This document shows, piece by piece, positions 9,882 through 30,845 of a stretch of DNA of 36,671 nucleotides. Numbering within the stretch: position 1 is the stretch's first letter; each line of letters begins with the position of its first letter. The stretch is from an uncultured virus (IMG/VR IMGVR_UViG_3300038504_000001) (Duplodnaviria; Heunggongvirae; Uroviricota; Caudoviricetes): the IMG/VR virus record IMGVR_UViG_3300038504_000001, positions 62,001-98,671 of that record; one strand, 5' to 3'. Below the pieces are notes generated by a model. That model was not told where the DNA came from and did not search any database. It saw only the letters and a list, made by a program, of their open reading frames with translations. The translations under genes and the position numbers were made by a program.

Positions 9882-10445
9882 GTGCAAGGAAATATTGAAA
9901 TAATAGACACTGTAGCTGAATTTGATATAGACAAATTCATAAGCTTTGAGAGTCTGGTTAATAAAAGATTAAACTACAACGGAGACCAATTTGCTGAAAT
10001 ATTAGAAAGCATATCTGAAGAAGATGAAGAGCCTACTTCAGAAGCTTTCTTGGAGTGTTATAATTCTGAGTTCAACCCTATAAAAGCTGTTTTCTATGTT
10101 GAGAACGAAGACGAAGATTTACTTGGGGGTTGTGTCTTATGGAATGCATCTTTAGACAGAGTTAAAATAGTTGACTTAGCTATTTCTGAAGATTGTGAGG
10201 GTCAAGGACTTGGTTCAATACTTATGGACGAAGCAATAGCCTATTGCAGGAGAAAAAAGATATCTCAAATAAACCTTGAAGTTAGAGATAATACTCCTGC
10301 CAAGTTTTTATATCTTAACAAAGGCTTTGAAGCTGTAGTATTGCTAACTGACTTTTACAAAGACTATGATGCTGAGAATTTAGTTGCTGAGAGAGGTCTT
10401 GAGATTCCTAGTCAAGATGCTTGGTATATGGAGCTTTACTTATGA
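9882..10445 (+). CDS. RimI-like GNAT N-acetyltransferase with acidic N-terminal extension
   Basis: LAISEDCEGQGLGSILM (acetyl-CoA motif A), LEVRDNTPAKFLYLNKGF, FY...DAWYM; GTG start after AAGGAG. Confidence 0.9.
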   Translation: MQGNIEIIDTVAEFDIDKFISFESLVNKRLNYNGDQFAEILESISEEDEEPTSEAFLECYNSEFNPIKAVFYVENEDEDLLGGCVLWNASLDRVKIVDLAISEDCEGQGLGSILMDEAIAYCRRKKISQINLEVRDNTPAKFLYLNKGFEAVVLLTDFYKDYDAENLVAERGLEIPSQDAWYMELYL

Positions 10446-11440
10446 GAACAAATGAACTTAAAAACGAAATAGAAAACACAGCATATTGTTCTGGAACAGA
10501 TATTATTGCTTATCTAAAAGAGTATCATACTTTTTTATCAGATAAAGGATTTTCAGCTTGTTGTTTAGCTACTTTATTCTTTTGTGCATCTTCAACTTCA
10601 TTTAAAATCGTAAACGTTGGTAATACAAAATTTCTGTTTAAAGAAGAGGGCAATAAGAAATATCAATTACAAGGTCTTCCTGTTGCAGACACTTTAGATA
10701 GAATAAGAGAAGCTGTAAGCTGTTGCCTTGAGCTTGGAATTGGTCTTGATTTGTCTGACTTAGATTTACTTAAACTTAAAATGAGTCCAATACCAGAAGT
10801 TATTATTGATAGCTATTTATATGAGCATAGTTCTATGTTTGAATACTTAGAGGGTTGCAGTAGGTCTACAAGAAAAAACATTAACCGATTTGATAGAGAG
10901 TATTCTTTTGCTGTTTTTAAAGCTAATTGTGTTTCTGATAGGGTTATGAATGCTATAAAAGATATAAACGAGATTTGGCTTAAAGAGTTCAAAGACGGAA
11001 ACAAAGACTACGAATACAATATTGATAACACTGAACTGTGCCTAACTAGTCATTTGATTTCACTAATAAACGCAGCTGTTATCGTTTACTATGATAAAGA
11101 GGACAAAATAGTAGCTTACGATTACTTTGAAGCTTGGGGAGATACTGTGTACTCTCTTGGTGGAAAATCTATAATAAAAGATTTATCTTCATTCAAGTCT
11201 GTAAACCGAAATGTGATGAAAGTTGCTAACGATTTATTTGGAGCTACTAAAATGGACATTGGATATTCTACTATATACAAACCTTTAAGTATGAAACCAA
11301 TAACAGAAAACTCATTGAAGTTAACTGAAGCTAAAAGTTCATTTCCAAACACTAGAACTTTGTATAATATCTTTTATACTAAGCCTTCTAAGTATTCTAA
11401 AGTTGAAGCTGTGGATAACAGTTCTAACTCTCTGTTTTAA
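10442..11440 (+). CDS. DUF2156/aaPG-synthase catalytic-domain-like aa-tRNA transferase, paralog 1 (type A)
   Basis: DSYLY..LEG..RKNINRFDREY, IVAYDYFEAW, AKSSFP match the DUF2156 pattern (DY.Y..L.G.K..KRN.INRF; AK.SY.P). ATGA overlap with the GNAT stop. No TM segments. Confidence 0.6.
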   Translation: MRTNELKNEIENTAYCSGTDIIAYLKEYHTFLSDKGFSACCLATLFFCASSTSFKIVNVGNTKFLFKEEGNKKYQLQGLPVADTLDRIREAVSCCLELGIGLDLSDLDLLKLKMSPIPEVIIDSYLYEHSSMFEYLEGCSRSTRKNINRFDREYSFAVFKANCVSDRVMNAIKDINEIWLKEFKDGNKDYEYNIDNTELCLTSHLISLINAAVIVYYDKEDKIVAYDYFEAWGDTVYSLGGKSIIKDLSSFKSVNRNVMKVANDLFGATKMDIGYSTIYKPLSMKPITENSLKLTEAKSSFPNTRTLYNIFYTKPSKYSKVEAVDNSSNSLF

Positions 11441-11449
11441 GGAAACCAA

Positions 11450-12382
11450 ATGCTAAATATTGCTGACATACCTAAGATTAAAAAAGCTTGGTCTTCTCTA
11501 AAACCTGATGAAGTTCTTGGAAGACTTTCATATGAAAATAACTTATTGCATGCAACAAAAGGTCATAAGCTTTTAAATGGGTGGTACTATTATGGTTGGG
11601 CAAACTACTGTATGTGGTCTCCTATCTTTTTAGAAGATACTAGTCGAGACCCAATGGAATTCTTTAAAGAGAATCCTGAGATAACTCATTGCTCTCATTA
11701 TCAAGATATTCATAGCATATCTCATAAGCCTAGTGAAAAGAAGTCTAAATATGCTACATTTTTATATACTAATTCTGAAGAGAACTTAAGTCTTAATGGA
11801 AAAGAGTATGCTAAGTTTAGACAGGCACTTAACTATATGAAAGATAACAAAATAACTATTGAACAGTATTCAGAAAACAAACCTGTGGATTTAGCTATTG
11901 TTCTTGAAGTAAAGTGCTTAATTGATTCTTGGAAAACACACAAAAAAGAAAACATAAAAGAGAAAGTTAACTATGAGCCTTTTGAGGTTATATCTAACTT
12001 GTATGACTATGGAACTTCTTTAGAGTATTTAACTACTATCATAAGGTATGACGGTGTTATAATTCATTATGAAACTTCTGAAAGAATACACCCTAATTAC
12101 ATTATAATAAGTGACTTAAAACCTAATGTATCTTTACCTAAAGAGGTAGCTACTAAATTTGGGTATGTAAACAGGTTAAACCATTATACTCATCTAGTGC
12201 ATTGGCATAACAAATACATTGAACAAGGTTATGATAAATCTTTTCCTATATACTATAATATTGGGGACGACGATTGGGTAAGTTACAAGAGTAGCTTAAA
12301 GCCTTCACACATAGTATCTACAATTAATAAAAAAGTAGGTAAACCTCCTGTGAAAAAATCTTTATCTAACCAATTATTTTAA
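11450..12382 (+). CDS. DUF2156-like aa-tRNA transferase, paralog 2 (type B)
   Basis: FLY..LSLNGKEYAKFRQALN, SERIHPNYIIISDLK, YYNIGDD..YKSSLKP. Confidence 0.65.
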   Translation: MLNIADIPKIKKAWSSLKPDEVLGRLSYENNLLHATKGHKLLNGWYYYGWANYCMWSPIFLEDTSRDPMEFFKENPEITHCSHYQDIHSISHKPSEKKSKYATFLYTNSEENLSLNGKEYAKFRQALNYMKDNKITIEQYSENKPVDLAIVLEVKCLIDSWKTHKKENIKEKVNYEPFEVISNLYDYGTSLEYLTTIIRYDGVIIHYETSERIHPNYIIISDLKPNVSLPKEVATKFGYVNRLNHYTHLVHWHNKYIEQGYDKSFPIYYNIGDDDWVSYKSSLKPSHIVSTINKKVGKPPVKKSLSNQLF

Positions 12383-12392
12383 GGGTATCAAA

Positions 12393-13370
12393 ATGACATT
12401 AATAGAGATTAAAAAAGCTATAGTTCTTGGAGCATATAAAATAACTCCTGATGAATTTATTAAAGCATATAAGAAGATGATAGCTAACAATTTACAAGAG
12501 CTAACTTATGACTCAAATACTTTAGAGTTGTTTAAATATTCTGAAAGCTATACTTTCAAGATAGATGAAACTTTCTTTGCAATTCACAAAAACGGCAAAC
12601 ATTATGCTTCTTGGTTTACTCCATTCACAGAAGAGGGTAATAATATCGAAGCATTAAATCTATGTATCGACTTAGGTATTGATATTACTTTTCACGATAA
12701 AGTAAGGGAAAAGCTGGGAGTGTCTTTTGAAAGCACTTATCAGAAGTTTGATGCTTACACTTATTCTAATCAAGGAATTATTGACAATTACAATGCGGCT
12801 GGGAGAAACAATAGTAGACGAAAGATTAATAAACTTAGAAGTTCTACTTACTTTGAGGTTATCCCTGCGAATGAGTTAACTGTATATCAGAAAGAAGACA
12901 TTTCAGAATTAGAAAAACAGTGGTTCGAGGTTGTTAAAAAGTCTAATTCTTTTTATTCTTTCAACTTTAATCAGTTAGTTAAAAACCATTTCATATCTGA
13001 TATTTTCAATGACACATTCGTTATATTATTCAGAAACAGGGAAGATGGAAAACCTGTTGGATACAGTTGTACTGAAATTATAGGAAACAAAGGTATTGAA
13101 TACATTAGAAAAAGCATTATGCAAGGTTCTCATTATGAATATATGACTATTGTTCAGATGGAAACATTGAAACAAAAATACAATATTGAGCTTATGGACT
13201 TTGGTGCAGCTAGGTTCTGGTATGGTAAGTCTATGATTGATAGAGTGAATGAACAGCTTTATAAAACAAAGTCTTCACTACCTCACGAACTTCATTGGGT
13301 TCATACTAGTGGGTATGATATGAAAAAGTTCAATAGCGTAGATATTGAAGCTTCTAGAGAATTATTTTAA
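12393..13370 (+). CDS. DUF2156-like aa-tRNA transferase, paralog 3 (type A, divergent)
   Basis: DAYTY..RRKINKL, QWFE, PVGYSCTE..RKS, MDFG..TKSSLPH; tail FNSVD shared with paralog 5. Confidence 0.55.
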   Translation: MTLIEIKKAIVLGAYKITPDEFIKAYKKMIANNLQELTYDSNTLELFKYSESYTFKIDETFFAIHKNGKHYASWFTPFTEEGNNIEALNLCIDLGIDITFHDKVREKLGVSFESTYQKFDAYTYSNQGIIDNYNAAGRNNSRRKINKLRSSTYFEVIPANELTVYQKEDISELEKQWFEVVKKSNSFYSFNFNQLVKNHFISDIFNDTFVILFRNREDGKPVGYSCTEIIGNKGIEYIRKSIMQGSHYEYMTIVQMETLKQKYNIELMDFGAARFWYGKSMIDRVNEQLYKTKSSLPHELHWVHTSGYDMKKFNSVDIEASRELF

Positions 13371-13379
13371 GGAAAACAA

Positions 13380-14306
13380 ATGGTTAGTAAATCTGAACTA
13401 AAATCTATAGCTGAAGCTTACAGAAAAGTCCCTAAAGATGAAGTATTAAACCACTTCCAATTTGAAAGCTCACTGATGTTTAACCCTAAAAACATAAAAC
13501 TAACTGATAATGGTTGGGCTTATTATCAAGAGGGGGCTTCTATTTATAAAGGTGTTACTAATATAAATAATCCTGAACAAGACCCAAATAAGTTTATTGA
13601 AAGTCTTAGTAGTTATTACGAGATAGAGCGAGTTTATTCTGAAGAGAATCAATTAGGCGAATTGTTAAATGGTTTGCCTAAAAAGAAAATGGGTATGCTG
13701 ATGTTCCTTTATGATAACAATGGACTACTTTTATCTAAAGTAGGAAAAGATTATCATAGATTCAGAACTAGCAGTAAGTACTTGGAAGACCCTGACTTTA
13801 GAGTGGAAGAGTTTGATAACAATAATCCTTTAACTTACGAAGCTTTATCTGCAATTATGTCTTTGAATGATAGTTGGAAAGCTAAAAAGAAAGAAGATAA
13901 CGACCCTGCTAGTTATGATGTTAATCGATGTATTAAAAACCTATTTGAGATTGGAAGTTTAACTGAATATTATGTAACTTTAATCTGGTACAAAGAAGAA
14001 CTATTGCACTTCCATTCTTCAGAAAGATTACATAACAACTTTGCAATATTACTTGACAGTAAAGTTAACTTTGGAGTAGATAAAGAGCTAAACACTCAAT
14101 TTAGATACTGCAACTTTTTACAACATTGGTTGCATATCAAGAAATGGCATATTGAGGGAGAAAAAGTGTACTATCATTCTGGAATGACTTCAATGAGTAG
14201 TTACAAAGTTCAACTTAGGCCTGCTATAATTTCTAAGTACTATTTAACTTTAGTTGCTGATATGCCATTTATATCTAGACCTAGTAAATCAAATTCATTA
14301 TTTTAA
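13380..14306 (+). CDS. DUF2156-like aa-tRNA transferase, paralog 4 (type B)
   Basis: FLY..GKDYHRFR, DSWK, SERLHNNFAILLDSK, YKVQLRP; aligns by eye with paralog 2 (DEVL, NGW.YY, GSLTEY/GTSLEY, WH). Confidence 0.6.
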   Translation: MVSKSELKSIAEAYRKVPKDEVLNHFQFESSLMFNPKNIKLTDNGWAYYQEGASIYKGVTNINNPEQDPNKFIESLSSYYEIERVYSEENQLGELLNGLPKKKMGMLMFLYDNNGLLLSKVGKDYHRFRTSSKYLEDPDFRVEEFDNNNPLTYEALSAIMSLNDSWKAKKKEDNDPASYDVNRCIKNLFEIGSLTEYYVTLIWYKEELLHFHSSERLHNNFAILLDSKVNFGVDKELNTQFRYCNFLQHWLHIKKWHIEGEKVYYHSGMTSMSSYKVQLRPAIISKYYLTLVADMPFISRPSKSNSLF

Positions 14307-14317
14307 AAAGGTAACTT

Positions 14318-15301
14318 ATGAACATTAAAGATTTCAAAAAGAAATTACTCTCTGCCTCTATTGAGGTTCCTCCCTTAGAGTTCCTTGATAGATTTTATGC
14401 TATGATTAAACACTTAAAGCTGAAAGGTTTCTATTTCAACAATAACACTTGCTGGATTTGGGGAAAACCTGCTAAGATTTTTGAGTACGATGGTGTTCTA
14501 TTTTGTGTTCATATTGCATCTGGCACTTACAGATTATTAGGGATTCCTGTTACAATGAGTTATGCTAAATTGGTTGAAGCAACTTCAATGTGTATTGAGC
14601 TTGGTCTTAATCTTAGAATAGGTAAAGAGGACTTAGCTGAAGTTACTGCATTGTACCCAGCAAAAGAATTAAATGATAATTACAATTACTATCATAAAGA
14701 CTTAGAGAACTATTGGGAGACTTGTTCTAGACAGTCTAGAAAAATACATAACCGATTAGAAAGAGACTATTCTGTTCTTGTATTAAAACCTCAAGACGTT
14801 CCTGTAGAGCTTGTAGCTAGGGTTTCTGAAATTAATCATATATGGATTAATCAATTTAAAGATAATGCTGAGAAGTCAAAACAAACTTTATCTTATGTGG
14901 ATAATATCTTTAAGCAAAATGTCCCTTTAGATAATGCTAGATTTATATTCTACACTAGAAATGAAACTGGAGTTGTAGAAGCTTACGATTATTTTGAAGC
15001 TTGGCATGGAGTAGGTATTGCTCCTGCTGGTAAAGCTATAATAGAGGGTTGCTCAACTTTCAAACATGTAACTATCAATATTGTGAAGTATCTAAAAGAA
15101 GAGCTTGGCGCAGGTGTTTGTCTGTTGGGTGGTTCCAATTTTTATGATTTAGATATGACTGTGCATAAAGATGGAAATCCTGGACTAAAGGTTGCTAAAA
15201 TGTCTATACCACACGAAGTTACTTATACTTATGTATATAGATATAATCCAAAAGCTTTCAACAGTGTTGATGTGTCCGAAAAAGTAAATGAGCTTTTCTG
15301 A
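14318..15301 (+). CDS. DUF2156-like aa-tRNA transferase, paralog 5 (type A)
   Basis: CSRQSRKIHNRLERDYS, EAYDYFEAW, GNPGLKVAKMSIPH (cf. DUF2156 G..GLRKAKLSY.P); closest to paralog 1. Confidence 0.65.
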   Translation: MNIKDFKKKLLSASIEVPPLEFLDRFYAMIKHLKLKGFYFNNNTCWIWGKPAKIFEYDGVLFCVHIASGTYRLLGIPVTMSYAKLVEATSMCIELGLNLRIGKEDLAEVTALYPAKELNDNYNYYHKDLENYWETCSRQSRKIHNRLERDYSVLVLKPQDVPVELVARVSEINHIWINQFKDNAEKSKQTLSYVDNIFKQNVPLDNARFIFYTRNETGVVEAYDYFEAWHGVGIAPAGKAIIEGCSTFKHVTINIVKYLKEELGAGVCLLGGSNFYDLDMTVHKDGNPGLKVAKMSIPHEVTYTYVYRYNPKAFNSVDVSEKVNELF

Positions 15302-18536: not shown

Positions 18537-18869
18537 ATGCAAAGATTACTTGGAACATTTAAGGGTATGTTGACTGAAGAAAGCTTACGCAGAGCTGGGT
18601 TTGAGATTGATACAAAATATTATGATAAAGGCTTTACTAACAAAGATTCTGAAATTGTGGAATTCGAAGATATAAACAGAAATATTGAACTTACAATATC
18701 TGACGACCCACACTTTGATTATATGGATTCTAAAGGATTGTATTATCAGGCACATTGGTTTGAAAAAATAGAAGAGCCTATATCTGGTTCTACTTACACT
18801 TTTGCTGTAATTGCTTTTATTTCGTTTATATTTTTTATAACATTATACTTTAACATTGAGGGAAAATAA
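18537..18869 (+). CDS. Hypothetical protein with C-terminal TM helix
   Basis: AGGAG RBS; FAVIAFISFIFFITLYF. Confidence 0.75.
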   Translation: MQRLLGTFKGMLTEESLRRAGFEIDTKYYDKGFTNKDSEIVEFEDINRNIELTISDDPHFDYMDSKGLYYQAHWFEKIEEPISGSTYTFAVIAFISFIFFITLYFNIEGK

Positions 18870-18870
18870 G

Positions 18871-19743
18871 ATGGTAACTTCACATAACTATGAATTAGAT
18901 AATTTATCTATAACTGACTGTAAAACATTAGACGCACTATTCTTATTGAAAGATAAGCTAAAAGAGCTAGAACCTTCAAAACCTATGTATATAGTTCCTG
19001 TTACTTATACTAAAGGTTGGACAATAGACTATGTAGAAACACCTATTGACTCTTATGAAAACATATGGGTTAGTGGTTCTTTGCTTAAAGCTGGAAACAC
19101 AGAAGAGCTAATGGTTTTCAATTATAAAGCTACAAAAGACTTTACAGAGTATGCTTTAGTTTGCAACGGAATTATGTACACATTTAGCGATGAAAACAAA
19201 TCTTACTTTGCTAATACATTTATGAAAGGTGCAAACACATCAATAATAACTTATAGTGTAAATGACGACGTTAAGACCAAAGAAGAAATGGAAACTTTTA
19301 GAGCTAGACAAGAAAAGGATATTCATAAAACAAAAGACAATATAAAAGCTATGAGTAAAGTTTTCAACAAAGCTAATATTGAGTTTGCTGAGAAAAAGAT
19401 ACCTTTACATATTAAATATGAGGTGGACGAAGAGGGTACTTATATGTCTCCTGTGATTAGATATAAGGATATAATATCTGATAGCTTGGTTTGTGTGATA
19501 GATAATGAGCTTAGTTGGGCTGAAGTGTATGCTAAAAGAAGAATATTCTATTCTTTAATGACTAGGGATAGACTTGGGATTGTTCGTCTAAGCATTGAAA
19601 CAAGAAGACCTAACAACAAAGATATTGACATTTACATAGGGGAGTGTAACTTGCTTTCTTCTAACTTAACTGAGTTAGCCACTGTTATCGAAATACTTAA
19701 AACATTATGTGAATCTTACTCTTTAGACTTTAGTCTTTTTTAG
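18871..19743 (+). CDS. Hypothetical protein
   Basis: ATG 18871 after GAGGG; ends in SLDFSLF. Confidence 0.75.
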   Translation: MVTSHNYELDNLSITDCKTLDALFLLKDKLKELEPSKPMYIVPVTYTKGWTIDYVETPIDSYENIWVSGSLLKAGNTEELMVFNYKATKDFTEYALVCNGIMYTFSDENKSYFANTFMKGANTSIITYSVNDDVKTKEEMETFRARQEKDIHKTKDNIKAMSKVFNKANIEFAEKKIPLHIKYEVDEEGTYMSPVIRYKDIISDSLVCVIDNELSWAEVYAKRRIFYSLMTRDRLGIVRLSIETRRPNNKDIDIYIGECNLLSSNLTELATVIEILKTLCESYSLDFSLF

Positions 19744-27295: not shown

Positions 27296-27611
27296 ATGTT
27301 CTTGGGTGTGGATTTCCTTTCTGCAACTTTGGCCTGTCCACACCTCAGAGCATTTATTACCTTAACGGTAGCTCTAGTATTGACAGCTCATACTTTGTGT
27401 AGCTGTAGAGGACTCGTATTAATTTTACTTAGAAAGTCTTCGCCAGTAAAGGGTCGGTCCTTTACTGAAGAATATATTATCTCCTAGGTTTTATATTAAA
27501 AGTCTGTGTGCGTGTGATTCCTTGTGCCAAAGGGCTCTTATTCATATGATTTGGTTTTACGATACTCTTTTTTAAATAGAATTTTCCACCTAGGTCTCCT
27601 TGCTTAGGTGG
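27295..27611 (+). ncRNA. Putative structured RNA(s) upstream of the tRNA-like genes
   Basis: Stems at 27295-27354, 27372-27410, 27444-27467 and 27586-27611 in a gene-free gap that is more GC-rich than other spacers. Confidence 0.4.
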
Positions 27612-27614
27612 TTT

Positions 27615-27690
27615 GGGGTGCTAGCTGTAATTGGTTAGAGCAACTGCTGAGAGCAGGGTTGTGTAGGTTCGAACCCTACGCACTCCACCA
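27615..27690 (+). tRNA. Aberrant tRNA with Ala identity (G3:U70, A73); anticodon arm non-canonical (5-nt loop UGAGA, or GAG anticodon on a 3-bp stem)
   Basis: GGGGTGC/GCACTCC acceptor, A, encoded CCA; T arm GTAGG-TTCGAAC-CCTAC; D arm GCT..TGG..AGC; CTGC-TGAGA-GCAG. Confidence 0.8.
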
Positions 27691-27748
27691 TAATATTGAA
27701 ATAAATACAGTAGCTATACTGTGGGTGCCAACCTTATTTATTTCTTAT

Positions 27749-27825
27749 GTCTCAATAGCTCAGAGGTAGAGCAATCCCCTTTTAAGGGATAGGTCGCACA
27801 TAATCAAAAAGTGCTTGGGACACCA
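27749..27825 (+). tRNA. tRNA-Lys(UUU) with aberrant T arm
   Basis: GTCTCAA/TTGGGAC acceptor, A, CCA; GCTC/GAGC D stem; ATCCC-CTTTTAA-GGGAT; T arm GCAC-ATAATCAAAAA-GTGC lacks GTTCRA. Confidence 0.85.
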
Positions 27826-27909
27826 TTTAATTTCTTGTAGTATGAACTTATTGACAGTCTATACTAGGGGAAACCCTACCTACGCTCATTAGGTTAAACT
27901 CTTAGTTAT

Positions 27910-28006: not shown

Positions 28007-29134
28007 ATGCGTAATTTAGCTAACAAATATCGTCCTTCAACATTTAGTGAAGTAGTTGGGCAAGAGCATATGACTGTTCTTTTAGATAGTATGGTAAACG
28101 GCTCTGGAGTATTGCCTTCAGGTCTTGTATTTGTAGGTAAGGCTGGTTCAGGAAAGTCAACGTCAGCTAGAATATTGGCTAAAGCTATCAACTGTTTATC
28201 TGAACATAAACCTTGTAATACTTGTGCTAACTGTGTTATGTTTAATACTATAAAATCTGATGGTATGCCTTCTTATCCTGACTATTTAGAAGTTGACGCC
28301 GCATCTTATGGTGGTAAGGAAGACATTGGATTACTTCTTGACTTAGCTGATAGAGGTACTTCTGTGCCTGGGGGACGAAGAGTAATATTGCTTGACGAAG
28401 CTCATAGATTATCTAGAGAAGCTTTTGATATTCTTCTTAAACCTTTAGAAGAGGGAATGTCTAAAACTGTTTGGATATTCGCAACTACTGATGGGGACAA
28501 AGTCCCCGCAGCTATATTGTCTCGTTGCCCTACTTTTACTACCAGACCTTTAACTCAAAAGAAACTTTATGGATATCTCAAAATGATTCTTGAATCTGAG
28601 AGTCTTGAATATGATGAAAAAAGCTTAACATTATTGTCTTATATCTATGCTGGTAAAACTCGTGATGCTGTAACTGAATTGAATATGCACGTAAACTCGA
28701 AAGGTTCTTTCCTTTCCTATAGTGACAAGTCTATTTATGAGTACATTATGGACTCTATGCTTAGAGCTTATAATAAGGACTTAGAGGGAGCTTATGAGTT
28801 GGTTAAAGAAACTATATCTTTTAAATCATCAAATATTGGTTATGACATAAGCGAAACAATACTTGCATTATATACTAAAAACTATAACCTAGTAAACAAG
28901 GGTGTGTTAGATGATTTTATAGAACTTGTTGGAGTTAATCTTTCAAAGATTATGAATATTTATCTTAATAACAATATTACTAATTCAGATAAGTTTATTC
29001 TGTCTTTGTGTTTGATAAGTGATTTAAACAAATCAACTGTTAAATCAATACAAACTAAAAGACGTGTGAAAACTGAAACTAGTATAAGCAAGGGATTAGT
29101 TGAAGATTTAGCTGGAACAGGAAAGTTTACATAG
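28007..29134 (+). CDS. dnaX: Clamp loader, DNA polymerase III gamma/tau-like
   Basis: LANKYRPSTFSEVVGQ, GKAGSGKST, C..PCNTCANC, EVDAAS, LDEAHRLS, LLKPLEE, ILSRC. Confidence 0.95.
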   Translation: MRNLANKYRPSTFSEVVGQEHMTVLLDSMVNGSGVLPSGLVFVGKAGSGKSTSARILAKAINCLSEHKPCNTCANCVMFNTIKSDGMPSYPDYLEVDAASYGGKEDIGLLLDLADRGTSVPGGRRVILLDEAHRLSREAFDILLKPLEEGMSKTVWIFATTDGDKVPAAILSRCPTFTTRPLTQKKLYGYLKMILESESLEYDEKSLTLLSYIYAGKTRDAVTELNMHVNSKGSFLSYSDKSIYEYIMDSMLRAYNKDLEGAYELVKETISFKSSNIGYDISETILALYTKNYNLVNKGVLDDFIELVGVNLSKIMNIYLNNNITNSDKFILSLCLISDLNKSTVKSIQTKRRVKTETSISKGLVEDLAGTGKFT

Positions 29135-29884: not shown

Positions 29885-29906
29885 CTCAATGTTATTAAGG
29901 ACTAAA

Positions 29907-30845
29907 ATGAGCAAACAATATACAAGCCTTTTCATATATAAACTTAAAAAAGAGTTCATTATTGGAATAGCAGAAAACTTTCCAAATATTAGAATACTTA
30001 CTGATGATTTGCTATGTGACGCAACTTATTTATTCATACCTGAAGATATTGATAGCAAAACTTTATCTAAGTTAAAGGGTAGTTTAGGCGGGGCTTACAA
30101 TGAGTCTTTTTCTTCATTAATTTCTGAGAATGAGATTGAGAAAATGTTTAATAAAAGAACTAAGGAGAAAATTAGTATTAAGGCAGGGGATTTAGGGTTT
30201 CTAGAGGGGTTCGGGAGTGTTCAAATGTGTGTAATTGAGTCTGAAAATGATTATATAGTAGTTAAACCTACTTCTGTTAATTTATTCAAACCTATAATCT
30301 CTTCATTAGATTCTTTTAAATTATGTAAAGAAGAAACAAAACACAGTATTGAATATACATATAACTTAACTGTTGCAATAGATTGTGATATATTTCCTAA
30401 CACAGACAAAGCAGATACTAATCTTTATTATTTTATACTTAAAGAAACTTTAGCTAGGATTATGTACAATGTGTACAATCTTGTAGACAATATTAACTTA
30501 GTGTTATCTAACCCTTGCCCTTTGCTTCAAATGGTTGGTGCAAGCTTGGGTATTGACTCTGTTTTTGGAGACATTAAATCTCCTTTCTTATCTGATGTAA
30601 GCAAAGCTCATATTAGGGTCAATCCTGCTAAATGGTATTCTGTAGTTAATGTATCTGACCTTGGAAGAGGGGAGACTATATCTTCAACTATATCTGTACA
30701 TTCTTTAATAGATTTTCACAGAAGTTTAGAAGTACATAGTAACCTTAACTCATATGAGATTTACCAACTATTGAATAGACGATACTTTATCTATCATAGC
30801 TTGTTGGATATAAATCTTAAGAACAGTCCTTTAGGAGACGAATAA
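29907..30845 (+). CDS. NusG-like (NGN + KOW) protein fused to an unknown C-terminal domain
   Basis: YLFIP, ISENEIEKM, IKAGDLGFLEGFGSVQMCVIE; ATG 29907 after AAGGA. Confidence 0.5.
   Translation: MSKQYTSLFIYKLKKEFIIGIAENFPNIRILTDDLLCDATYLFIPEDIDSKTLSKLKGSLGGAYNESFSSLISENEIEKMFNKRTKEKISIKAGDLGFLEGFGSVQMCVIESENDYIVVKPTSVNLFKPIISSLDSFKLCKEETKHSIEYTYNLTVAIDCDIFPNTDKADTNLYYFILKETLARIMYNVYNLVDNINLVLSNPCPLLQMVGASLGIDSVFGDIKSPFLSDVSKAHIRVNPAKWYSVVNVSDLGRGETISSTISVHSLIDFHRSLEVHSNLNSYEIYQLLNRRYFIYHSLLDINLKNSPLGDE

Follow-up and report, generated by a model that had tools for sequence, protein, structure and literature searches.

Transfer RNAs (tRNAs) dedicated to a task other than translation are documented, as far as the available text of PMC7826273 goes, only for glycine in staphylococci, where the anticodon is kept. 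These non-proteogenic tRNA-Gly species feed the transferases FmhB, FemA and FemB of the peptidoglycan bridge and bind elongation factor Tu (EF-Tu) poorly, and according to the same text S. aureus and S. epidermidis are the only species in which they had been detected (PMC7826273). Here, we describe tRL1, a tRNA-shaped RNA gene in a stretch of DNA of 36,671 nucleotides (nt), hereafter the window, which covers bases 62001-98671 of the IMG/VR record IMGVR_UViG_3300038504_000001 of an uncultured virus (Caudoviricetes). tRL1 is classed here as a translation-independent tRNA: the RNA gene is real, conserved and very likely non-decoding, which confirms the observation made in a preliminary description of this DNA. 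The interpretation of tRL1 as an alanine donor for a cassette of five transferase-like genes in the same genome, d1-d5, is plausible and somewhat strengthened by the analysis, and it is unproven.

In the texts at hand, which lie mostly outside subscription journals and in part only as excerpts, no phage tRNA-like, pseudo-tRNA or anticodon-loss element of the tRL1 kind was found. In the available text of a review of non-canonical tRNAs (PMC7609411), an anticodon stem of 5 bp with a loop of 7 nt is consistently conserved, and no phage case is named (a term search gave 0 occurrences of 'phage'). In the same body of texts, 'DUF2156' and 'phage' co-occur only in work on duplications of aminoacyl-tRNA synthetases.

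Structure and conservation of tRL1

The acceptor stem of tRL1 is formed by 27615-27621 pairing with 27680-27686 and consists of G1-C72, G2-C71, G3:U70, G4-C69, U5-A68, G6-C67 and C7-G66, where G3 is the G at 27617 and U70 is the T at 27684; A73 is located at 27687 and CCA at 27688-27690. The D loop contains GG. The features of a canonical cloverleaf, namely a 7-bp acceptor stem, a D arm, a 5-bp T stem and a 7-nt T loop with the T-Psi-C motif, are all present, and the minimum-free-energy fold reproduces the arms. However, the canonical anticodon arm, with a 5-bp stem and a 7-nt loop holding U33, the anticodon and purine 37, is lacking, and an arm with a 4-bp stem and a 5-nt loop stands in its place (Table 1). 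An alternative fold of this arm has a 3-bp stem and a 7-nt loop displaying GAG. The acceptor, A73, CCA, T arm and short anticodon loop given in the preliminary description were confirmed from the sequence, and its GAG-displaying alternative is present as well. The variable loop is 5 nt long.

The Rfam model RF00005 aligns with tRL1 from end to end (model positions 1-71) at 35.7 bits and, for the window, an E value of 4.9e-4; the gathering score is 29, and the alignment marks 13-22 and 27-43 as non-standard pairs. A strict structural pattern of the tRL1 frame gave one match in the window and none in 100 shuffled sequences. ARAGORN reported 0 tRNA or transfer-messenger RNA (tmRNA) genes in the window, so that both tRL1 and a second tRNA-like gene, tRL2, were missed, and no Rfam tmRNA family reached its threshold there. 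A similarity search with tRL1 in E. coli genomes gave no match, and an exact 28-mer of tRL1 was not found in the viral-contig collection. Two other identities were rejected. The reading as attP or another integration site was discarded because tRL1 and tRL2 each form a full cloverleaf and none of the 127 open reading frames (ORFs) scanned with Pfam matched an integrase or recombinase family, and the reading as a Y RNA because there was no such Rfam match and no Ro60/TROVE match.

The rarity of the design was assessed using a frame that combines a G-rich Ala acceptor, the CTGC/GCAG stem, a loop of 3-6 nt and a canonical T arm. This frame occurs in 0 IMG/VR contigs, with the record of the window itself possibly left out, and gave three matches in a one-genome-per-species collection of bacteria and archaea, all of which are metagenome-assembled genomes (MAGs) with 6-nt loops. 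These three tRNA-Ala genes (L007:3001-3072, L008:3001-3072 and L009:3001-3072; Microbacteriaceae, Endozoicomonas and an actinomycete) have loops one base below the ordinary Ala loop, which plausibly are single-base insertion or deletion errors. Because the search pattern is narrow, the rarity holds for this design and not for short-loop tRNAs in general.

The occurrence of tRL1 in other samples was surveyed using sequence words of the 1-kb stretch around tRL1 and tRL2. Every sampled word of the stretch is contained in four of the 20 runs listed, all four from one study, which is possibly the source; this argues against a one-off assembly error. Contigs from four runs, belonging to three further studies, were also compared with the stretch at a likeness of at least 80%; an uncovered part of the stretch does not signify absence. 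Two of these runs, X5 (DNA) and X15 (RNA library), come from one study and share a relative, which covers 27516-27687, has 15 other letters instead of the 64-nt spacer, and continues over 27752-27858. In the located flank of this relative (27546-27614), 6 substitutions and 2 insertions or deletions were found in 69 nt, which corresponds to a divergence of about 12%, and no located change was found in the 38 nt of tRL1 at 27615-27647 and 27653-27657. The chance of 38 unchanged nt at the rate of the flank is about 0.01 by our arithmetic. The 5' strand of the acceptor has no listed difference. The located events inside tRL1 number three and all fall in the anticodon loop, where a letter is missing at 27648, a T is inserted, and 27651 is changed from G to T. 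The loop TGAGA becomes GATTA, with four of the five positions different and the length of 5 nt kept.

A further lineage was obtained from X7, a run of another study, in which a 164-nt contig is identical to the window over 27687-27811 and its letters before 27687 correspond to the 3' part of tRL1. As for the T stem, positions 49, 50, 64 and 65 are all altered: G49-C65 is changed to U-A and U50-A64 to C-G, so that both changes are compensatory and pairing is retained. There is also one change in the T loop, and the 3' strand of the acceptor including U70 and A73 is unaltered. The preliminary description had considered that relatives might carry a normal loop, indicating recent decay, or that the loop might be an assembly error. 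Instead, the loop of the diverged relative is likewise 5 nt long, and X7 has the compensatory T-stem changes. The results of the comparison indicate, with high confidence, that tRL1 is a real, conserved RNA gene maintained by selection.

The directly encoded CCA of tRL1 in the window is not conserved; this and the presence of tRL2 had been missed in the preliminary description. The X15 contig, which is 294 nt long and comes from a transcriptomic library of wastewater, lies wholly within 27516-27858, consisting of tRL1, tRL2 and short flanks. It hints weakly at a separate transcript of the two genes, DNA carry-over being possible in such libraries.

Predicted charging of tRL1 and the candidate transferases

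Alanyl-tRNA synthetase (AlaRS) recognizes G3:U70, A73 and G2:C71 together with the neighboring G-C pairs. It ignores the anticodon, and it charges acceptor helices and tmRNA that have none. This identity set is intact in tRL1, as is the elbow of the molecule, and by analogy with these substrates tRL1 is probably charged with alanine. With an anticodon loop of five bases, tRL1 is very likely unable to read a codon.

The affinity for EF-Tu was estimated by our own calculation, in which the T-stem rules of PMC3239215 (Table 2 there) were applied to both T-stem variants of tRL1. The value is −9.4 kcal/mol for both variants. In the available part of that paper, the class means of tRNA-Ala are −10.0 to −10.3 kcal/mol, and the staphylococcal cell-wall tRNA-Gly computes to −9.5 compared to a class mean of −10.8 (PMC3239215). 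The calculated shift is toward weaker EF-Tu binding, the direction that the donor interpretation would need, but its size is within the normal spread of the paper.

The candidate acceptors of the alanine are encoded by d1-d5, five tandem ORFs of 308-339 amino acids (aa) at 10421-15301. The preliminary description had linked tRL1 to DUF2156-like enzymes, and the five tandem ORFs are real and d1 has the transferase fold, but the cassette lies 12 kb upstream of tRL1 and is not adjacent to it. The gathering score of PF09924 is reached by d1 alone among the five. As determined by phmmer, two subfamilies, d1/d3/d5 and d2/d4, alternate as A-B-A-B-A along the cassette, and this order may mean that the transferases work as pairs or in ordered steps.

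The AlphaFold2 model of d1, based on a 17-sequence alignment, has a pLDDT of 91.3. The top PDB matches obtained with Foldseek are L-PGS 4v36, the stand-alone DUF2156 protein 2hqy, A-PGS 4v35, 7z6a and 9wqw (probability 1.00), with E values of about 1e-10, TM values of 0.51-0.59 and identities of 10-14%. The best PDB folds all belong to aminoacyl-tRNA-dependent tandem-GNAT enzymes, namely L-PGS, A-PGS, FemX, Sbb17/Sba18 and full-length MprF. Judged from the model, d1 is a candidate aminoacyl-tRNA transferase with a tandem-GNAT fold. The model of d2 was unusable (pLDDT 44.6), and the comparison of d2/d4 with the d1 family using hhalign gave E 0.051 at a probability of 1%, which is not significant; at the sequence level, d2 and d4 seem to be tied only weakly to the DUF2156 family.

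All five proteins, in both subfamilies, end in an xLF tail (Table 1). In its loose form, the tail occurs in 7 of 131 ORFs, and those beyond d1-d5 are the ORF at 18856-19743 (DFSLF) and the genome ORF 52644-54446. We take this tail to resemble the C-terminal tails that bind sliding clamps. Searches with PHROGs and NCBIfam, with E values allowed up to 0.1, identified no sliding clamp gene. The d1 family is tiny: 18 matches were found among 1.84 billion representatives and none in 50,697 GenBank phage records, and the search with an alignment of the d1 group gave no match in the viral-contig or metagenome-contig collections. The relatives possess separate orthologues of d1, d3 and d5.

The nearest PDB sequences of the GNAT acetyltransferase encoded just upstream of the cassette are N-alpha-acetyltransferases and nourseothricin acetyltransferase. 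A homologue of this GNAT and a DUF2156-like domain are joined in a single protein, P0017 (517 aa, from a JGI/IMG contig of 8,653 nt), and this fusion connects the GNAT with the cassette. The proteins P0014 and P0017 were searched in the viral-contig collection, and no relatives were found there.

In the donor interpretation, tRL1 would be transcribed together with tRL2 and matured by the tRNA-processing enzymes of the host, and the AlaRS of the host, which ignores the anticodon, would charge it with alanine. The alanine would be kept out of protein synthesis by the missing anticodon, which is observed, and possibly by a T stem on the weak side for EF-Tu. It would then be passed to the tandem-GNAT, transferase-like proteins d1-d5, and the product might be capped by the adjacent GNAT. 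The use of tRL1 as the donor for the cassette is possible rather than probable, and the chain as a whole, where a conserved, non-decoding Ala-type carrier RNA feeds d1-d5, is likewise tentative. A wider version appears improbable. In this version, tRL1 (Ala) and perhaps tRL2 (Lys), charged by the synthetases of the host, would form a translation-independent aminoacyl supply for the five transferases, whose shared xLF tail would serve for docking and which together with the GNAT would decorate newly replicated phage DNA or another replisome-linked target with an amino acid or a short peptide, that is, a tRNA-dependent hypermodification with its own adaptor RNAs.

Several observations weigh against the donor interpretation or the data on which it is built. 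In the RNA itself, the D stem contains a mismatched pair, G13.G22, the fold energy has a z score of −1.20, with 24 of 200 shuffled sequences equally stable, and blastn of tRL1 against annotated phage tRNAs gave insignificant matches only, to genes of the Pro, Met, Thr, Val and Ser types; overall similarity does not group tRL1 with tRNA-Ala genes. The X5/X15 piece has 10 mismatches, 3 of which are unlocated within 27516-27545 or 27658-27687, and up to three substitutions could fall in the last 30 nt of tRL1 (27658-27687). Both the X5/X15 and the X7 lineages carry three extra letters between A73 and a CCA. The 294-nt contig of X15 is the sole evidence of expression and may be DNA carry-over. The loop evolves faster than the flank (three located events in 5 nt), which is not predicted for a loop that is passive and irrelevant and is left unexplained by the donor interpretation; this hints at a role in specificity or in an arms race and keeps the counter-defense explanation discussed below alive. 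The calculated EF-Tu value deviates from the Ala mean by 0.6-0.9 kcal/mol, which is inside the outlier criterion of 1.3 kcal/mol given in the available part of PMC3239215. As regards the genes, about 25 unrelated ones separate the cassette from tRL1, which lies 12 kb downstream. Known DUF2156 and Fem enzymes use ordinary tRNAs, and a private donor is not required for them. Furthermore, AAA is the commonest codon of the phage (56.5 per 1000), so that tRL2, whose anticodon is UUU, may simply decode, and the argument for a pair of Ala and Lys donors is weakened accordingly.

Neighboring elements and rival explanations

Table 1. Positions of the RNA elements and of the acetyltransferase and transferase-like genes in the window.
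Feature	Position	Strand	Description
tRL1	27615..27690	+	tRNA-shaped RNA gene; G3:U70, A73, encoded CCA, canonical T arm, 5-nt anticodon loop
tRL1 anticodon arm	27643..27657	+	A-CTGC-TGAGA-GCAG-G; A.G mismatch 27-43, 4-bp stem, 5-nt loop at 27648-27652
tRL1 T arm	27663..27679	+	5-bp stem GTAGG/CCTAC, 7-nt loop TTCGAAC
tRL2	27749..27825	+	second tRNA-like gene, 58 nt downstream of tRL1; Rfam 48.6 bits
10-bp hairpin	27586..27611	+	ends 3 nt before the first base of tRL1; −14.8 kcal/mol, z −4.51, equalled by 0 of 200 shuffles
Spacer tRL1-tRL2	27691..27748	+	not conserved; replaced in the X5/X15 relative
GNAT acetyltransferase	9882..10445	+	just upstream of the cassette and overlapping it; Pfam Acetyltransf_1 E 9e-13
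d1	10421..11440	+	DUF2156/LPG_synthase_C-like tandem-GNAT protein; PF09924 33.8 bits, cut-off 27.5; ends SNSLF
d2	11450..12382	+	paralogue of d4 (phmmer E 1.7e-40); PF09924 E 0.0045, 16.5 bits, below cut-off; ends SNQLF
d3	12393..13370	+	paralogue of d1 and d5 (phmmer E 1e-21 to d5, 4e-13 to d1); no PF09924 match; ends RELF
d4	13380..14306	+	paralogue of d2; no PF09924 match; ends SNSLF
d5	14318..15301	+	paralogue of d1 (phmmer E 5e-39); PF09924 E 2.4e-4, 20.7 bits, below cut-off; ends NELF

As listed in Table 1, tRL1 is accompanied by tRL2 and a hairpin. Both tRNA-like genes sit in the 519 nt that separate the end of an ORF at 27487 from the start of the clamp-loader gene at 28007. Of 14 candidates scored across the whole genome, no others match the tRNA model. 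tRL2 has a regular acceptor stem, D arm and anticodon arm, with the loop CTTTTAA giving the anticodon UUU (Lys), and it possesses both A73 and CCA. The T arm comprises only 4 bp, and the T-Psi-C motif is missing from its loop of 11 nt. The z score of its fold is −2.79. tRL2 is covered without gaps in three other contigs, namely those of the X5/X15 relative, of X7 and of a more distant lineage in X5. No located change was found over 27782-27825 in the X5/X15 relative, including the odd T arm, and the distant X5 contig (2,067 nt) has 4 mismatches, of which one was located, at 27791 in the variable loop. In the X5/X15 lineage, the 5' strand of the tRL2 acceptor seems to contain an additional T, which would produce a bulge or shift the 5' end. 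Other short matches at 27754-27797 run on into ordinary T arms and represent unrelated tRNAs of other organisms, and an exact 23-mer of the tRL2 T arm was not found in the metagenome-contig collection.

AlaRS reads the acceptor, and lysyl-tRNA synthetase reads the anticodon. Each of the two genes keeps the part that is read by its synthetase and has lost a part needed by the ribosome, which is the anticodon in tRL1 and the T loop in tRL2. Possible roles of tRL2 are those of a carrier of Lys, an odd decoder of AAA, or a counter-defense tRNA. The hairpin has no difference listed in the X5/X15 relative, where the flank just upstream is heavily changed, and it may terminate transcription of the genes upstream or act as an element for processing or stability. 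A repeat scan gave nothing relevant, and the scan for promoter-like and terminator-like sites next to tRL1 and tRL2 found none on the plus strand.

The source record is a virus of 98,671 bp with direct terminal repeats, rated complete. The GC content is about 32%, and all sizeable ORFs are on the plus strand. The Pfam and PHROGs matches are those of a tailed phage, with genes of its own for replication (family-A polymerase, primase, helicases, ligase, clamp loader, a RecA-like protein, deoxynucleoside monophosphate kinase, MazG and NUDIX) and genes for structure (baseplate, tail spikes and a CHAP lysin). No aminoacyl-tRNA synthetase, integrase or recognized tRNA-repair gene was found among the 127 ORFs scanned. 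There is no cultured relative, and the best match of the clamp loader in the GenBank phage records is 35% identical; as a single-protein query, the clamp loader found no relatives in the viral-contig collection. The ORF at 29889-30845 gave only sub-noise leads in the protein atlas (best 0.78, including an RtcB-named cluster), which were not used.

The rival that survives best is counter-defense, in which tRL1 and tRL2 would be decoys or inhibitors of a host factor that cleaves, modifies or senses tRNAs, with no transfer of amino acids. The distribution of changes in the X5/X15 relative, with three located events within the five letters of the loop and 38 nt of the body free of any, has the pattern of an arms race, and phage tRNAs neutralize tRNA-targeting defenses according to the available parts of PMC11464382 and PMC10264068. 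The UUU anticodon of tRL2 also fits, as tRNA-Lys is targeted by the PARIS effector AriB (PMC11464382, available part) and by the anticodon nuclease PrrC (PMC2610378, available part). However, the published counter-defense tRNAs replace the cleaved tRNA with a resistant decoder, and tRL1 cannot decode. The decoy for anticodon nucleases that the preliminary description had listed should display the targeted loop, which in tRL1 is destroyed, with loop letters that are not conserved, so that this form is unlikely for tRL1. In addition, counter-defense leaves the retention of the full AlaRS identity set unexplained, and no defense or anti-defense gene was recognized beside tRL1 and tRL2. Taken together, the explanation is rather unlikely.

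Less likely again is a structural or processing element, where the cloverleaves would serve as cut sites for RNase P and RNase Z, as stabilizers of transcript ends, or as a tRNA-like module in a larger regulatory RNA. The conserved hairpin adjoining the 5' end of tRL1, the position of both elements in the intergenic gap before the clamp-loader gene, and the RNA-library contig spanning tRL1 and tRL2 as one piece are all consistent with such a function. Nevertheless, processing signals need the shape of the acceptor and T arm, whereas G3:U70, A73 and an intact anticodon arm with UUU are not required for them. Relatives that keep the cloverleaves have other sequence in the spacer and flanks, no larger conserved RNA is visible, and the plus strand around the two genes has no promoter-like or terminator-like site.

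A decaying tRNA-Ala pseudogene, or an error of assembly or sequencing in the loop, is very improbable. The rejection of tRL1 by ARAGORN, an Rfam score that is low for a tRNA (35.7 bits), the two stem mismatches (13-22 and 27-43), and the three error-like bacterial matches, one base short and in MAGs, would agree with it. However, every sampled word is present in four runs, and a diverged relative found in a different study again has a loop of 5 nt, composed of other letters. Compared to a flank diverged by about 12%, the body of tRL1 is conserved, and a third lineage (X7) has compensatory T-stem changes; this conservation and covariation disfavor the pseudogene considered in the preliminary description.

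The least credible of the rivals is an odd decoder, the missense tRNA of the preliminary description, in which the 3-bp stem with the loop C-U-GAG-A-G would place Ala at CUY (Leu) codons or cause frameshifting: the 7-nt alternative loop of the window has U33 and purine 37, but the X5/X15 relative has no U33 and AUU instead of GAG at the same positions, which indicates that the identity of a decoder is not conserved, putting Ala at these codons would be costly because CUU is common here (22.9 per 1000), and a 3-bp anticodon stem beneath an A.G mismatch does not correspond to a known decoder architecture.

Significance and comparison with known systems

If the donor interpretation is true, it would show that viruses are able to divide the pool of aminoacyl-tRNAs and devote part of it to non-ribosomal chemistry by means of an anticodon-less Ala-type carrier, and tRL1 would be a specific RNA substrate, which gives an experimental handle on a very rare, uncharacterized family of phage tandem-GNAT transferases. 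For annotation, it matters that both tRL1 and tRL2 were missed by ARAGORN; such genes would normally be ignored or called pseudogenes.

Among phage tRNAs, the tRNA-Lys of T5 acting against PARIS is also a variant altered in the anticodon stem-loop, as far as the available part of PMC11464382 describes it. Counter-defense tRNAs of the T5 type are working decoders that replace the cleaved host tRNA, whereas tRL1 cannot decode. tRL2, with its UUU anticodon, might belong with the phage counter-defense tRNAs. The tRNA-like domain of tmRNA resembles tRL1 in having a G3:U70 Ala acceptor without an anticodon, which in tmRNA is charged by AlaRS (PMC3985003, available part). However, tmRNA has no anticodon arm and contains a message and pseudoknots, whereas tRL1 is a full cloverleaf of 76 nt. 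The tRNA-Other of B. cereus is likewise tRNA-derived, non-translational and recruited to another role, and it differs in that it is proposed, in the available part of PMC3399842, to be part of a larger regulatory RNA, which is not seen around tRL1.

As for the proteins, d1 has the same tandem-GNAT fold as the C-terminal domain of MprF, stand-alone DUF2156 proteins, FemX and Sbb17, and it passes PF09924. The cassette differs from those transferases in its low identity (10-14%), the lack of a membrane domain, the five tandem copies in alternating order, and the xLF tail.

The staphylococcal non-proteogenic tRNA-Gly genes differ from tRL1 in that they retain the UCC anticodon and have changes scattered in the D and T arms, where tRL1 has no usable anticodon (PMC7826273, available part). 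They are cellular, whereas tRL1 is viral, with its charging and its use by transferases being predicted. The likeness is that the staphylococcal genes are extra tRNA genes that are still charged by the normal synthetase and feed transferases (PMC7826273, available part), and in the phage, too, transferase-like genes, d1-d5, are present in the same genome as tRL1.

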